This document shows, piece by piece, positions 1 to 6,750 of a DNA stretch of 36,371 bases. Within the stretch, counting starts at the first letter, position 1, and every line of letters starts with the position of its first letter. Under the pieces are notes generated by a model. It had not been told where the DNA came from. It ran no database searches and worked only from the letters and a program-made list of their open reading frames with translations. This stretch comes from Minisyncoccia bacterium (lineage in GTDB: Bacteria > Patescibacteriota > Minisyncoccia > UBA6257 > GWB1-50-10): the NCBI GenBank assembly GCA_049971465.1, contig JBMFLB010000003.1, positions 1 to 36,371 on the forward strand, read 5' to 3'. The translations under genes were made by a program, and so were the position numbers.

Positions 1-28
1 TTGATAAGATAAAAATTCATAGTATAAT
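1..28 (+). promoter_or_regulatory. Sigma70-type promoter for the small Pro-rich ORF
   Basis: TTGATA (1-6), 16-nt spacer, TATAAT (23-28), 37 nt upstream of the ATG at 66. Confidence 0.6.
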
Positions 29-50
29 TTTTGTAGAATCCTTAAAAAGA

Positions 51-60
51 AAGGAGGTGA
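51..60 (+). promoter_or_regulatory. Strong Shine-Dalgarno sequence
   Basis: AAGGAGGTGA ends 5 nt before the ATG at 66; it is the only clear consensus RBS I noticed in the window. Confidence 0.85.
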
Positions 61-65
61 ATAAA

Positions 66-173
66 ATGTCTGACAAGCCGGGGCCACACCCCGGTCCTTC
101 TGGTCCGGGTAAACCACATCCAAGCCCTCCGCCGCCTAAACCATATCCAGGGGCTCCTCCTAATCCTAAATAA
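66..173 (+). CDS. 35-aa proline-rich small peptide MSDKPGPHPGPSGPGKPHPSPPPPKPYPGAPPNPK (below the ORF-track cutoff)
   Basis: ATG 66 to TAA 173 translated by hand; perfect RBS, upstream promoter and downstream hairpin; 16 of 35 residues are Pro. Confidence 0.8.
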   Translation: MSDKPGPHPGPSGPGKPHPSPPPPKPYPGAPPNPK

Positions 174-201
174 ATGACGCGGCGAAAGGTACCATCGAGA
201 T

Positions 202-230
202 GGCGGGTTTTAAAACCCGCCCTTATTTAT
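202..230 (+). terminator. Hairpin / putative intrinsic terminator between the peptide and peptidase genes
   Basis: Perfect 20-nt palindrome GGCGGGTTTTAAAACCCGCC (202-221) followed by CTTATTTAT, an imperfect U tract. Confidence 0.6.
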
Positions 231-274
231 TAATCTAAGTTGATTTATAATTTAAATAAGCCATTTAATTAAAA

Positions 275-1387
275 ATGAATAATACACAAAAACAATCTAT
301 TTTAGGTTGCTTAGTACCTGTTGGTTCTGTTTATGAGAATAAAAAGCATAAAGGTTTATCTCATTTTTTAGAACATTTAATATCTTTATCATTAAAGAAA
401 AAGGAAATTCAAGAAAAATTGACAAGATTTAATATCTATTTTGATGCTCACACTTATGAATATTACACTTACTACAAATTTTACTGCCTCAAAAAATTTG
501 AAAAAGAAGCTTTAAAAATTATGAAAGATTTAATTCTAAATCCAGAATTTTCTCAAAAAGACATTTCAATTCAAAAAAGTGTGATTCTTGAAGAAATAAA
601 TAATAGAAAAGATTTATATTATAAAATTTGGGATGATATTAAAAAAACGGTTTTAAAGGATGAAAATGTTTCTGACCCAATAATTGGCTATCCTGAAAAT
701 ATTAAAAATTTTAATTTAAATATTATTAGGAATTGGTATAAAAATTTCTACAACAAAGCAATTTTTGTCAAATGGGAAAATGCAAAATTAATCTTTTTAA
801 ATGATATTCAAAAAATTTCAATCCAGCCACAACCTGTTTCAAAAATAAACCTTGAAAATAAAAAATTTATTTTTAAGAAACAACCAGCACCTGCTTTTGC
901 TCTTGCTTTAATTTTAAAAGACAATTTTGATTTTAAAGAAAGACTTGCTTTAGATATTTTTTATAGGATAATGTGCGGGGCGGAGGCGTCTTTACTCTAT
1001 CAAAAATTAATAATGTCTGGTTTGGCTTATAATCTTTATTGTTTTCCAGCTAATTACAATGGAGCAAGTTTAATTGTTTTTGGTGCTTATTCATCTCAAC
1101 CCCAGAAAATTTCACAAAAAATACAAAAAATTATTCAAAATTTTCCTAAACTTTTTAGCAAAAAATTATTTGCCATTTTTAAAGAATCTTACCTTAATTC
1201 ATTTTTAACTCAAATAGCCAATGGCAACATTATTGATTTTGTTTTTTATGAATTCAGCACCTTTGGAAAATACCATTCTTTAAACAAAACCTTAGATTAT
1301 CTAAAAAGCATTAATCAAGAAGATATAAACAAAATTTATCACAAAATTATAAAAAATAGCCATTGGAAATTTTTTTACTATAATTGA
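275..1387 (+). CDS. M16 (insulinase/pitrilysin) family zinc metallopeptidase
   Basis: VGSVYE...GLSHFLEH inverted zinc motif (HxxEH), downstream KSVILEEI glutamate ligand region, PIIG motif, and a C-terminal M16_C-like half (SLLYQKL...GLAY). Confidence 0.9.
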   Translation: MNNTQKQSILGCLVPVGSVYENKKHKGLSHFLEHLISLSLKKKEIQEKLTRFNIYFDAHTYEYYTYYKFYCLKKFEKEALKIMKDLILNPEFSQKDISIQKSVILEEINNRKDLYYKIWDDIKKTVLKDENVSDPIIGYPENIKNFNLNIIRNWYKNFYNKAIFVKWENAKLIFLNDIQKISIQPQPVSKINLENKKFIFKKQPAPAFALALILKDNFDFKERLALDIFYRIMCGAEASLLYQKLIMSGLAYNLYCFPANYNGASLIVFGAYSSQPQKISQKIQKIIQNFPKLFSKKLFAIFKESYLNSFLTQIANGNIIDFVFYEFSTFGKYHSLNKTLDYLKSINQEDINKIYHKIIKNSHWKFFYYN

Positions 1388-1916: not shown

Positions 1917-3287
1917 ATGAAAAATTTTAATTTCAGAAGTGAAAAAGAAGTTTTGGATTTTTTAAAGGAAAATAAAATTGTTAGATTTGTCAGAATAATT
2001 TTTCCTGATGTTTTGGGGAGGGAAATGAGTTTTTGTTTGCCTTCAGAAAAAATGAAAAGAGCTTTTGAAATGGGGGCTGGATTTGATGGAAATTCAGTTG
2101 AAGGTTTTGCTAGAATTGAAGAATCAGATTTGATAATTTTACCAGATCCAAAAACCTTTAGAGTCTTGCCTTGGAATTATGAATTAGAAGATGTAATTTG
2201 GAAAGAAGCGGTTGTCTTTGGTGATATCTTTACCCCAAAGGATGAACATTTTGAAGGAGATTCAAGATATATTTTAAAGAAAACTTTAGAAAAGACAAAA
2301 AAGTTTGGCCAACTTTTTGTTGGTCCGGAATTGGAATTTTTTATTTTTGAATCGGAAAGAGAACCAAAATTTTTAGATTCAGGCGGCTATTTTCATGACG
2401 GAAAATGGGGCGAAATTAGAAAATTGGCTCAATTGTATTTAAAAGAAATGGGAATTGACTCAGATTATGACCATCATGAGGTTGCTCCAAGTCAGCATGA
2501 AATTGATTTGAAGTATTCGGATGCTTTAACAATGGCTGATTCAGTGATTTTGGCAAAATATGTCTTAAAAAGAATTGCCAAGAAATTGGGATTATTTGTC
2601 TCTTTTATGCCAAAACCAATTACGATTGTTAATGGCTCTGGGATGCATTTGCATTTGAGTCTGTGGCGGGCTTCTAAAAAGAAAAACTTGTTTTTCAAAG
2701 AAGGAAAAGATTCTCTCTCTAATTTAGCCAAAAAATATTTAATGGGATTGATTAAATATAGCAAAGAAATTCAGTTGGTCTTGAATCAATGGGTCAATTC
2801 CTACAAAAGATTGATTCCAGGTTATGAAGCTCCAGTTTATTTAGCCTGGGGAAGAAAAAATCGGTCAGCTTATATCAGAGTTCCAGAAACTCATTTGGCA
2901 AAGGCAAAAGAAGCTACCAGAATTGAATTGAGAAGTCCTGATCCTGCTTGTAATATTTATTTAGCACTAGCTATTATCCAAGCAGCCGGTGTTCAGGGAG
3001 TTAAGGAAAATTTAAAATTGATGCCGGCAGAAGAAAAAGACATTTATGAAATATCAAAATCTAAAATGAGGAAAAAGAAAATTAAAACCCTTTCTAATAA
3101 TTTGGAAGAGACACTGGAATTATTCAAAAAGAGCAAACTGACAAAAGAAACTTTGGGAGATCACATTTTCCAAAAACTAATCCAAAACAAAGAAATCGAA
3201 TGGCAAAAATACAAAAAAGCGGTCGGCAAGCGGTACGAAAAAGAAGTTTCCCCTTACGAAATAAAAGAATACTTACCTGTTTTATAA
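1917..3287 (+). CDS. glnA: Glutamine synthetase type I
   Basis: GFDGNSVEGFARIEESD, GPELEFF, HHEVAPSQHEID, FMPKP..VNGSGMHLHLSL, SYKRLIPGYEAP, NRSAYIRVP and RIELRSPDPACN motifs. Confidence 0.97.
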   Translation: MKNFNFRSEKEVLDFLKENKIVRFVRIIFPDVLGREMSFCLPSEKMKRAFEMGAGFDGNSVEGFARIEESDLIILPDPKTFRVLPWNYELEDVIWKEAVVFGDIFTPKDEHFEGDSRYILKKTLEKTKKFGQLFVGPELEFFIFESEREPKFLDSGGYFHDGKWGEIRKLAQLYLKEMGIDSDYDHHEVAPSQHEIDLKYSDALTMADSVILAKYVLKRIAKKLGLFVSFMPKPITIVNGSGMHLHLSLWRASKKKNLFFKEGKDSLSNLAKKYLMGLIKYSKEIQLVLNQWVNSYKRLIPGYEAPVYLAWGRKNRSAYIRVPETHLAKAKEATRIELRSPDPACNIYLALAIIQAAGVQGVKENLKLMPAEEKDIYEISKSKMRKKKIKTLSNNLEETLELFKKSKLTKETLGDHIFQKLIQNKEIEWQKYKKAVGKRYEKEVSPYEIKEYLPVL

Positions 3288-4960: not shown

Positions 4961-5052
4961 TGGCGGAAGGGGCGAGATTCGAACTCGCGGTTCGCTTTAA
5001 TGCGAACACACGCTCTCCAGGCGTGCCCGTTAGACCACTCCGGCACCCTTCC
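4961..5052 (-). tRNA. tRNA-Ser(GGA)
   Basis: Minus strand reads GGAAGGG...CCCTTCC-G-CCA; anticodon arm CACGC-CTGGAGA-GCGTG, long variable arm, GTTCGAATC T loop, encoded CCA. Confidence 0.97.
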
Positions 5053-5106: not shown

Positions 5107-6750
5107 CTACAAAAATTTATGATGCATTGCTGCTTTAATAAAAGCTTTAAATAAAGGATGAGGATGTAATGGCCGAGATGTAAATTCAGGATGAAATTGG
5201 GTACCAACAAAAAATGGATGTTTATTTTTTGGCAATTCTATAATTTCCATTAATCTTTTATCCGGTGAATAACCAGAAAAAATTAAACCATTATTTTGCA
5301 AAATTTCTACATATTGGGGATTAACTTCATAACGATGTCGATGTCTTTCTTCAATTTGTCTTTTTTTATAAACATTAAAAACTAATGAATTGTTTTTTAA
5401 TATTGTTGGATAATTACCTAAACGCATTGTACCGCCATAATTTTTGTTTTTAATTTTTTCTTTTTGCTCTGGCAATAAATCAATCACAGGATAAGCAGTG
5501 TTTTTATTTATTTCACTGGAATTAGCGCCTTTTAATTTACATACATTTCTTGCAAATTCAATAACCGCAAGCTGCATCCCATAACACAAACCTAAAAATG
5601 GTATTTTATTTACACGACAATAATGAATTGCTGCAATTTTTCCTTCCACTCCTCTTGAACCAAATCCGCCAGGCACAATAATTCCATTAAAATTTTTTAA
5701 AATATTTAACTTGTTTTTATGTTTTTCAAAATCTTCTGCATTAATCCATTCAATAACTGGTTTTTTACCCCAAAAATAAGCGCTATGTTTTATTGCTTCA
5801 ATAACTGAAATATATGAATCAGCTAAAATAAAATCTCCACTACCAAAATATTTTCCAACAATTCCAATTTTAACTATTTGTTTTGCATTTTTTGATTTAG
5901 TTACCATTAATTTCCATTGCTGCAAATTTGGCTTTTTAGCATTAATATGAAGTTTAGTCAAAATTTTATGACTTAAATTTTCTTTCTCAAAATTTAATGG
6001 AATTTCATAAATATTTTGCACATCAGGAGCAGAAATAATATCGTGATATTTTAAATTACAATTAAATGCAATTTTTTCCTTTCGTTTATCATCTAAAGGT
6101 ATTGTGGCGCGCGCTAAAATAAAATCTGGCTGTAAACCAACAGAATTTAAAGTCCTTACTGCATATTGAGTTGGTTTAGTTTTTAATTCACTATTTTTAT
6201 TTTGTAATGGCAAATAACTAACTAAAATTAAAATAATATCATTTGGATATTGAAATTTTAATATTCTTACTGCTTCTAAAAATAAAATATTTTGATATTC
6301 ACCTACTGTGCCGCCAATTTCAACAATAACAACTTCCGCATTTTCTTGATAGGCAGCATTATTTATTTTATTTATTATTTCCAATGGAATATGAGGTACA
6401 ACTTCAACGCATTTACCATTATATTGCAAATTTCTTTCTTTATTTATAACTGATAAATAAATACTGCCGGTAGTCATATAATTAGCACGATTTAAATCAG
6501 TATTTAAAAATCTTTCATAATTTCCCATATCTTGATCGCATTCCATTCCATCTTTTAATACAAACACTTCTCCATGTTCAATTGGATTCATTGTACCAGC
6601 ATCAACATTAACATAAGGATCAATTTTAACTGCTGTTACTTTTAATCCTCGTGATTGCAAAATTTTAGCAATGGAAGAAACTGCTACACCTTTGCCAACT
6701 CCTGACATTACTCCGCCTGCAACAAAAATATATTTTATTTTTTTTGTCAT
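5107..6750 (-). CDS. pyrG: CTP synthase
   Basis: KYIFVAGGVMSGVGKG, KIDPYVNVDAGTMNP, PGGFG.RG, GLCYGMQ, ERHRHRYEVN and QFHPEF motifs. Confidence 0.98.
   Translation of the reverse strand: MTKKIKYIFVAGGVMSGVGKGVAVSSIAKILQSRGLKVTAVKIDPYVNVDAGTMNPIEHGEVFVLKDGMECDQDMGNYERFLNTDLNRANYMTTGSIYLSVINKERNLQYNGKCVEVVPHIPLEIINKINNAAYQENAEVVIVEIGGTVGEYQNILFLEAVRILKFQYPNDIILILVSYLPLQNKNSELKTKPTQYAVRTLNSVGLQPDFILARATIPLDDKRKEKIAFNCNLKYHDIISAPDVQNIYEIPLNFEKENLSHKILTKLHINAKKPNLQQWKLMVTKSKNAKQIVKIGIVGKYFGSGDFILADSYISVIEAIKHSAYFWGKKPVIEWINAEDFEKHKNKLNILKNFNGIIVPGGFGSRGVEGKIAAIHYCRVNKIPFLGLCYGMQLAVIEFARNVCKLKGANSSEINKNTAYPVIDLLPEQKEKIKNKNYGGTMRLGNYPTILKNNSLVFNVYKKRQIEERHRHRYEVNPQYVEILQNNGLIFSGYSPDKRLMEIIELPKNKHPFFVGTQFHPEFTSRPLHPHPLFKAFIKAAMHHKFL

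Follow-up and report, generated by a model that had tools for sequence, protein, structure and literature searches.

A stretch of 36,371 nucleotides from a Minisyncoccia bacterium (contig JBMFLB010000003.1 of assembly GCA_049971465.1), called the window here, begins with a small gene for a proline-rich peptide that is followed on the same strand by a gene for an M16 zinc peptidase. The comparisons reported below suggest that the two genes form a conserved and unannotated module, in which a ribosomal peptide has a peptidase dedicated to it. Contig C3, which the window covers from end to end, is one of the 52 contigs of a 0.5-Mb genome of 27% GC, designated G000. The module is found sporadically in Paceibacteria-like bacteria of the candidate phyla radiation (CPR). 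In all nine lineages in which the peptide was recognized, the next gene on the same strand encodes a zinc peptidase, which is an M16 protein in two of them (the window and a group of loci designated the G336 type) and an unrelated HExxH protein in the other seven. A preliminary description of the window, made from its letters alone, had placed a promoter, a ribosome binding site, a 35-amino-acid open reading frame (ORF), a hairpin, and an M16 gene in this region, and reexamination of the sequence together with Pfam matches found all of them where they had been placed. The features of the locus are as follows.

1 to 28, plus strand: sigma-70-type promoter, TTGATA-N16-TATAAT, with 11 of 12 consensus matches
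50 to 60, plus strand: Shine-Dalgarno (SD) site AAAGGAGGTGA, ending 5 nt before the ATG at position 66, its GGAGG core (53 to 57) lying 8 nt before that ATG
66 to 173, plus strand: micropeptide gene, 35 amino acids including 16 prolines, MSDKPGPHPGPSGPGKPHPSPPPPKPYPGAPPNPK, recognized from the ORF, its homologues, and core variation that is synonymous only
72 to 116, plus strand: conserved core DKPGPHPGPSGPGKP, residues 3 to 17 of the micropeptide, with 14 of 15 columns invariant in nine sequences
105 to 158, plus strand: genome-specific 27-nt (9-codon) duplication in the variable tail, PGKPHPSPP and PPKPYPGAP, a direct repeat of 74% identity
202 to 231, plus strand: intrinsic-terminator-like hairpin with a T-rich tail, from inverted-repeat and terminator scans
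275 to 1387, plus strand: zinc peptidase of family M16, 370 amino acids, in a rare subfamily linked to the peptide, from Pfam, invariant residues, and a tree

Conservation of the proline-rich peptide

The proline-rich peptide gene is real, as the preliminary description had supposed, and its variation indicates that it is translated and under purifying selection at the protein level. Nine distinct DNA versions were obtained from Paceibacteria-like genomes and metagenomes, and they share the plan x-DKPGPHPGPxGPGKP followed by a variable tail rich in proline, lysine, and arginine, for a total length of 26 to 35 amino acids. The invariant core positions (14 of 15) are each encoded by two to four synonymous codons across the nine versions. 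The N-terminal segment is invariant, and the tail is hypervariable, cationic, and proline rich. A short peptide gene in which a recognition part is conserved and the core varies is the pattern of precursors of peptides made on the ribosome and modified after translation (RiPPs), and in its sequence the present family is likewise leader/core-like.

Homologues were collected by three routes. A six-frame search of relatives gave matches in 5 of 101 genomes at an E value of ≤1, three of them credible, and a six-frame search of the order gave matches in 8 of 401 genomes at an E value of ≤0.1, of which those in G000, G058, and G336 were clear and that in G333 was counted as credible from its context. 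A degenerate DKPGPHPGP pattern was then run on public metagenomes, yielding 20 stretches, of which 9 belonged to the family and 11 were unrelated. The unrelated stretches (L056, L057, L062 to L068, L071, and L072) lay on higher-GC contigs, lacked GPGKP, and were dropped, as were weak matches in G081, G070, G323, G288, G211, and G033 that on inspection were not family-like. There were no matches to the core pattern in viral contigs. A search of genome contigs with the peptide alignment returned 73 pattern stretches, of which tblastn confirmed only the query locus, a procedure that is uninformative for short peptides of low complexity.

The peptide family is almost never called by gene callers; a profile run against 5.8 billion protein clusters recovered a single called member, of 34 amino acids. 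The micropeptide has no Pfam or NCBIfam match, and no published description of the family was found in the open PMC and bioRxiv literature.

The peptide had been read in the preliminary description as three quasi-repeats of about 10 residues that are not a DNA microsatellite. Tandem Repeats Finder reports no tandem repeat. However, the second and third quasi-repeats (105 to 131 and 132 to 158) are a diverged direct duplication of 27 nt, one that is specific to G000, with a single copy in the other family members. Only the first quasi-repeat, the core, is conserved across the family.

Two other explanations of the small ORF were considered and rejected. The frame of the ORF stays open upstream as far as base 3, and base 1 is the contig start, so that the window alone would be compatible with a longer gene cut by the contig end. 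Relatives show upstream stop codons and the same SD site, which rules this out and places the start at the ATG at position 66. The ORF region also stands out as an island of 54 to 57% GC in surroundings of 21 to 25%. It is not a known RNA, as a gathering-threshold Rfam scan of the whole window gave only one tRNA, and an E-value scan of positions 1 to 400 gave nothing above 21.7 bits, with all rows far below cutoff and at chance level.

Expression signals around the peptide gene

The promoter and terminator motifs in the window prove nothing alone, because they are not more abundant there than in shuffled sequences. In the AT-rich 2-kb stretch used for this comparison, 7 promoter-like sites were found against 10.4 expected, and 1 terminator was found against 0.9 expected. 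We judge the signals to be real because they are conserved, bases 1 to 68 recurring on another contig of the genome and the SD site, ORF, and hairpin recurring in nine lineages.

An SD site containing GGAGG precedes the start codon in all nine lineages, as AGGAGGTGA in eight and as AGGAGGCGA in the G336 type. A hairpin with a T-run likewise follows the stop codon in all nine, beginning 8 to 31 nt past the first base of that codon, and is retained in the minimum free energy (MFE) structure of the whole transcript in every lineage. In the window, the hairpin at 202 to 221 is a perfect inverted repeat of 10 plus 10 nt, GGCGGGTTTT and AAAACCCGCC, followed by CTTATTTATT. The inverted-repeat scan gives it as a 10-bp stem, and the terminator scan scores it as 8 pairs with a 4-nt loop. 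The ATG at position 275 that starts the M16 gene has no SD site upstream.

The recurring 68 bases, a cassette of promoter, 5' untranslated region, and ATG, are found again at positions 2608 to 2675 on the minus strand of contig C13, with 96% identity. The C13 copy has a perfect promoter, TTGACA-N16-TATAAT, and stands upstream of a different, GC-richer small ORF (C13, 2400 to 2675, minus strand). That ORF would encode about 71 amino acids, rich in histidine, aspartate, glycine, and tyrosine; it has a terminator hairpin of its own and no significant Pfam match. Contig C3 starts exactly at the promoter, probably because of this repeat shared with C13. Contigs end less than 300 nt upstream of the peptide gene in five of the nine lineages (L054, L055, L058, L070, and the window), and the promoter region may therefore occur as a repeat in the genomes of those other four as well.

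Linkage of the peptide to two unrelated peptidases

The linkage is conserved in both directions, from peptide to peptidase and from peptidase to peptide, and the functional coupling of peptide and peptidase proposed in the preliminary description is borne out to that extent. Going from peptide to peptidase, adjacency holds in nine of nine lineages. Going the other way, the HExxH family has 9 places in 7 of the 401 genomes of the order, and a short proline-rich ORF lies directly upstream at seven of them; G333, for instance, has MGDKPGKPGPYPKPEGPGRPVPPTPPPK, and G130 has MADKKGGRGGNPNKGPGKPPKPKTGSTKKK. No such ORF was seen at the remaining two, one on contig C1 of G200 and the other a weak match in G142. 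Six of the upstream ORFs, those outside G058, were reexamined; all six have a GGAG-type SD site, and a strong hairpin accompanies five of them. The start codon of the enzyme in the HExxH loci is within a few nucleotides of the terminator T-run, leaving no room for a separate enzyme promoter. On the M16 side, the subfamily is found at an E value of ≤1e-25 only in G000 and G336 among the genomes of the order, and both carry the peptide. The G336-type M16 is the only genome-sampled homologue with a readable context, and it does have the same small ORF upstream.

Flanking genes differ between the module-bearing loci. In G067, L073, and G333, where the full context is visible, the module consists of the peptide and the peptidase only, and the conserved unit is these two genes. 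One peptide family is followed by peptidases of two unrelated folds, so that proteolysis is the property shared by the two kinds of neighbor.

The M16 peptidase of the window

The window M16 protein matches Pfam Peptidase_M16 at 77.2 bits (cutoff, 22.3) and M16_C at 41 bits (cutoff, 23). It carries HFLEH at residues 30 to 34, and H30, E33, H34, and E106/E107 are invariant in an alignment of three sequences. In M16 peptidases the distal glutamate that ligates zinc is expected about 70 to 77 residues downstream of HxxEH. The protein thus has both the inverted HxxEH motif and the distal glutamate of M16 enzymes of the pitrilysin/insulinase type, and is M16B-like.

This protein is an accessory paralogue, the housekeeping copy being on contig C2. 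In a quick tree, the second G000 M16 protein, encoded on C2, nests in the housekeeping clade of the family (Shimodaira-Hasegawa-like approximate likelihood ratio test [SH-aLRT] support, 96), and the window M16 falls outside that clade, grouping with P0003 (97) and with the downstream M16 protein of the G336 type (91). Its grouping with housekeeping orthologues, which the preliminary description had named as a reason to abandon its proposal, was therefore not what the tree returned. Its two other such reasons, peptidase homologues lacking a small ORF upstream and a peptide neither conserved nor translated, were not borne out either. Although M16 matches are present in 59 of 61 relatives, they show merely 23 to 37% identity to the window M16, and in a database of 5.8 billion clusters it has only one close relative, at 52% identity. 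Against the PqqF model TIGR02110 it scores 11.6 bits, below the equivalog threshold (cutoff, 320).

The G336 type comprises loci L048, L060, L061, and L069. The gene order there is M16-peptide-M16. The downstream M16 protein is 34 to 35% identical to that of the window, the two being 370 to 378 amino acids long, and the upstream M16-like gene is very divergent (M16_C, 20.1 bits; cutoff, 23), with HLMEH present. Also near the G336-type module are genes for other HExxH-motif proteins of 254 to 306 amino acids (L060, 1 to 2102; L069, 3148 to 4909), which gave weak SprT-like or DUF3267 rows, and an ORF of about 106 amino acids rich in histidine, aspartate, and glutamate.

Prediction of a complex of the window M16 (alignment of 3 rows), zinc, and the peptide (alignment of 9 rows) reached a score of 0.01 against a mark of 0.32; it was run without controls and counts neither for nor against an interaction.

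The HExxH partner in relatives

The HExxH proteins that follow the peptide in seven lineages are about 175 to 195 amino acids long. H91, E92, H95, and E111 are invariant, giving the motif HExxH-x15-E, with the glutamate 16 residues past the second histidine. The structural model is confident (mean predicted local distance difference test score [pLDDT], 89.8), and its structural neighbors are mostly catalytic domains of zinc metallopeptidases, the rest being other HExxH metalloenzymes. The fold matches are modest, with a best E value of 0.014 in Foldseek and a best Z score of 7.7 in VIA, and the model supports a general zincin fold and no more than that. Matches to DUF6647 (PF20352; cutoff, 24.1 bits) range from 27.1 bits for L058 through 19.2 bits for L033 and 11.7 bits for L032 to no match for L055. 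The HExxH family has 283 representatives at an E value of ≤1e-3 among 1.84 billion. Fusion of the peptide to the enzyme as a pro-domain was seen in none of the 10 longer representatives that were inspected, of 150 listed.

G200, a genome of 0.5 Mb, has three HExxH copies (C38, 458 to 991; C3, 13198 to 13719; and C1, 337 to 861). Two of these stand behind different peptides rich in glycine, lysine, and proline, and the third, on C1, has no detected peptide. In G333 (L080; G333 contig C13, 2641 to 5360), the order on one strand is the peptide, the HExxH gene, a 95-amino-acid ORF without a family match, and a gene for a 428-amino-acid M16 protein. The presence of both peptidases there could be due to chance, because nearly every relative has an M16 protein.

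Modifying enzymes near the module

A modifying enzyme is not a consistent partner of the module. The genome-wide search covered radical SAM/SPASM proteins, and other modifying classes were judged from reading the neighborhoods. There was no SPASM match in four module-bearing genomes, G067 (98% complete), G333, G200, and G130, and the SPASM genes of G053, G104, G336, and G000 sit on contigs other than that of the module. The sole SPASM protein of G000 is HxsB, on contig C34 (L075, 298 to 1776, minus strand; 510 bits; cutoff, 370). It is followed by an HxsA3-like ORF (C34, 2 to 283, minus strand) that ends HVSHSSHAS, with His-Xaa-Ser repeats, at the contig edge, and the HxsB protein has its own His-Xaa-Ser substrate. 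No overlap shared between C34 and the left end of C3 could be seen by eye, which leaves no ground for joining the two contigs. The window peptide is not of the HxsA type, having no NCBIfam match and only a single, unconserved H-P-S triplet, with HxsB and the HxsA3-like ORF together on C34.

Candidate enzymes do occur beside two of the loci. In G058, a radical SAM/SPASM gene lies 1.6 kb upstream of the peptide on the same strand, with an opposite-strand methyltransferase gene in between; the NCBIfam rows that score highest for it are those of peptide and sulfatase maturases, none of which reaches its cutoff. In L060, a gene with a SPASM domain ends 3 kb upstream of the peptide, also on the same strand. 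L069 is nearly identical to L060 around the peptide, has different genes upstream, and has no SPASM gene within 4.5 kb in that direction. Upstream of the G067 module are genes that by eye are tRNA-synthetase-like and ClpP-like, and the upstream genes of L073 are unrelated. A modification step may be an optional addition in some lineages. Two further observations were made at these loci: the L060 SPASM protein has a C-terminal extension of about 110 amino acids, and a 99-amino-acid ORF that G058 carries between its radical SAM gene and its peptide gene (L077; G058 contig C23, 3222 to 3521) resembles by eye the N terminus of the 306-amino-acid HExxH-motif protein found near the G336-type module.

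A proposed function and its alternatives

We give roughly even chances to a minimal module that makes much peptide and little peptidase, the former being the dedicated substrate of the latter. The near-consensus promoter and perfect SD site would drive synthesis of a peptide of 26 to 35 amino acids rich in proline, glycine, and lysine, and, with the terminator coming right after the stop codon, the next gene would be reached only by read-through transcripts. The peptidase gene lacks its own SD site, and the peptide would be made in large excess over the enzyme, as expected from the strong promoter and SD site, the terminator behind the peptide, and the absence of an SD site or of room for a promoter before the peptidase. 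The peptidase would then cleave the peptide, either by a cut between the conserved N-terminal part and the tail (maturation) or by destroying it (turnover or self-protection). The excess of peptide, its cleavage, the position of the cut, and the action of the product are matters that we infer.

Several points weigh against this proposal. A short ORF, a terminator, and a promoterless gene are the classical layout of an attenuator too. The sample is small, with nine core-type lineages. Five of the nine were found by searching with DKPGPHPGP, so that the invariance of those residues is partly ascertainment; GPGKP lies outside the pattern, and the other four lineages came from protein searches. 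The M16 tree is a quick version, flagged for long branches and compositional bias. The peptide of the G336 type sits between two M16-like genes, the upstream side of the window peptide is beyond the contig start, and a tblastn search of G000 for a counterpart of the upstream G336 gene found none. Finally, the neighborhoods that were read show neither an exporter nor a modifying enzyme conserved next to the module, which leaves a processed product with no evident way out of the cell and no evident role inside it.

Of the alternatives, a cis-acting leader peptide is the one to which we assign the most weight, though it too is unlikely. Translation of the ORF, rich in proline, glycine, and lysine, would sense the supply of charged tRNA or of elongation factor P and thereby control read-through into the peptidase gene, the peptide itself having no function. 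The locus has everything that such a device would require in its layout, a promoter, an SD site, a short ORF, a terminator, and a gene without its own SD site or promoter, and a peptidase induced by amino acid shortage would suit an auxotroph. Such attenuators are known from trpL and hisL, and the proline-codon leader ORFs mgtL and mgtP control attenuation in enterobacteria; they resemble the module in having a short ORF and an intrinsic terminator before a downstream gene. However, no alternative antiterminator pairing was found here. Pairing of the ORF with the 5' arm of the terminator was no better than that of shuffled ORFs in any of the nine lineages (z scores, −1.25 to +1.16), the best ORF pairing was always weaker than the terminator, and the terminator is the structure left intact in the whole-transcript MFE folds. 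The variable distance from stop codon to hairpin means that a terminating ribosome would cover the stem in some lineages only. Moreover, it is the exact order of residues that is invariant, aspartate, lysine, and histidine included, and not just codon content, and the conserved part is N terminal, at a variable distance from the stop codon. This fits a product acting in trans better than a sensor of codon composition or a C-terminal arrest peptide. The leader peptide keeps the weight that we give it because the antiterminator test rests on an energy model only. A somewhat smaller likelihood attaches to the peptide being a stoichiometric inhibitor of the peptidase, a trans-acting pro-segment or antitoxin-like partner made in excess to silence a harmful enzyme. 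The small upstream gene is predicted to be expressed more strongly than the enzyme, as in toxin-antitoxin gene order. Proline-rich chains resist most proteases, and the invariant Asp3 and His8 might ligate the catalytic zinc in the manner of aspartate-switch zymogens. The distribution is sporadic, with several copies in G200, and DUF6647 has been placed with Tox-MPTase5 in the MA clan (PMC11467057). Against this, one peptide family would need to inhibit two unrelated folds, M16 and HExxH zincin, a hypervariable tail is unusual for an inhibitor that fits an active site, and the longer HExxH representatives inspected included no fused pro-domain form.

A full RiPP pathway, in which a radical SAM/SPASM or other enzyme encoded off the window modifies the precursor before the peptidase removes its leader, is improbable. 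The leader/core-like conservation of the peptide would suit it, as would the same-strand SPASM genes of G058 and L060, and the window starts at its promoter, leaving its upstream neighbors unseen. But four module-bearing genomes have no SPASM match at all, four others have SPASM genes on other contigs (with the HxsB of G000 next to a substrate ORF of its own), the L060 gene is missing from the corresponding place in L069, and a methyltransferase gene on the opposite strand interrupts the G058 arrangement. The preliminary description had supposed that a modifying enzyme lay off the window or had been removed by the adjacent insertion sequence. The transposase remnant is indeed there (Pfam rve_3; E value, 3.3e-12; 1561 to 1815), but a module of two genes in G067, L073, and G333 and the four genomes without a SPASM match speak against such a loss. 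The H/Y-x-x triplets that it had offered as cross-linking sites fare no better; the tail histidine and tyrosine of the window peptide are unconserved, and only His8 is conserved. What stands of the RiPP-like precursor and maturation reading is therefore the peptide gene and its coupling to a peptidase, and not the modifying enzyme. Least probable of all is that the adjacency has no functional meaning and that the peptide acts on its own as a small protein, for instance by binding to nucleic acid or to the ribosome. It does have its own promoter and terminator, and the same promoter cassette drives the unrelated small gene on C13, which has no peptidase after it. This is difficult to reconcile with the adjacency in all nine core-type lineages and at most HExxH places despite differing flanks, and with HExxH start codons that lie so close to the T-run.

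A bolder extension of the substrate proposal, which we regard as improbable, is that CPR bacteria encode leaderless, cationic, proline-rich effector peptides like the ribosome-targeting proline-rich antimicrobial peptides of animals, with the metallopeptidase either releasing the active tail or protecting the producer by degradation. An arms race with hosts or competitors would in that case account for the hypervariable tails and for the presence of multiple copies in a genome.

Comparison with known systems

Among known systems, those nearest to the module are the M16B leader peptidases and, more generally, operons of the precursor-terminator-enzyme type. M16B pairs are documented to be sequence-specific leader peptidases of ribosomal peptides (PMC8960859, PMC10885120). 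Like PttP1/PttP2 of class III lanthipeptides, AlbE/AlbF of subtilosin, and PqqF/PqqG of pyrroloquinoline quinone, the window has an HxxEH M16 protein encoded beside a short peptide gene, and the G336-type peptide between two M16-like genes resembles the heteromeric pairs. However, the window M16, at 370 amino acids, is shorter than housekeeping M16 copies, which have about 420 to 440, no lanthipeptide synthetase, radical SAM enzyme, or other modifier is consistently linked here, and most relatives have an unrelated HExxH protein in the place of the M16. Precursor-terminator-enzyme operons of bacteriocins and RiPPs include those of nisA, sboA, and pqqA. The layout of the module resembles theirs, as the preliminary description had said, in the strong ribosome binding site, the short gene, the limiting hairpin, and a peptide that is conserved in its N-terminal part and varies in its C-terminal part. 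It differs in having one enzyme, a peptidase, and no exporter, immunity, or modification gene, and its peptide lacks the cysteine, Ser/Thr-rich, or Gly-Gly leader features of such precursors. In sum of these likenesses, the module is set apart by having no consistent modifier, by having two genes only, and by a peptidase that is swapped between unrelated folds.

DUF6647 has been proposed to be a member of peptidase clan MA (PMC11467057). The HExxH partner resembles DUF6647 and minimal gluzincins in its motif and zincin fold, one member (L058) scoring above the DUF6647 cutoff and three (L032, L033, and L055) not reaching it. HExxH enzymes of RiPP clusters can hydroxylate and cleave peptides (PMC12636437). 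Two such alpha-ketoglutarate-dependent enzymes, SjiH (Z score, 7.5) and ChlB (Z score, 6.9), are among the fold neighbors of the partner, but the solved HExxH-oxygenase chains in the fold matches have 342 and 409 residues, about twice its length. Proline-rich antimicrobial peptides of the oncocin, apidaecin, and Bac7 type are eukaryotic and are secreted from precursors with signal sequences. The present peptide is like them in being short, cationic, proline rich, and free of cysteine, a likeness of composition only. Once the methionine is removed, a small residue and then Asp-Lys-Pro would stand at the N terminus of the peptide, whose tail consists of Pro-Arg/Lys-Pro units. The module differs from these animal systems in having no signal peptide or exporter.

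Significance and neighboring genes

Module-bearing genomes have about 0.5 to 0.8 Mb, and accessory genes in genomes so small likely earn their keep. Two peptidase folds behind one peptide amount to a natural replacement experiment, which suggests that what they share in function is proteolysis of the peptide. If the peptide is the substrate, an orphan M16 subfamily and a zincin family resembling DUF6647 would each gain a substrate, a synthetic 35-mer and one enzyme would make a simple in vitro system, and a new class of proline-rich bioactive peptides might be recognized in bacteria. If it is instead an attenuator, then proline- or glycine-sensing control of peptidase expression in amino acid auxotrophs would also be new.

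Directly after the M16 gene, the transposase remnant on the plus strand is a C-terminal piece of an integrase core of which about 85 amino acids are left. It is followed at 1917 to 3287 by a gene for glutamine synthetase (Gln-synt_C; E value, 2e-99). Farther along, on the minus strand, are a tRNA-Ser gene at 4961 to 5052 and, at 5107 to 6750, an ORF of 547 amino acids that is CTP synthase-like by eye.

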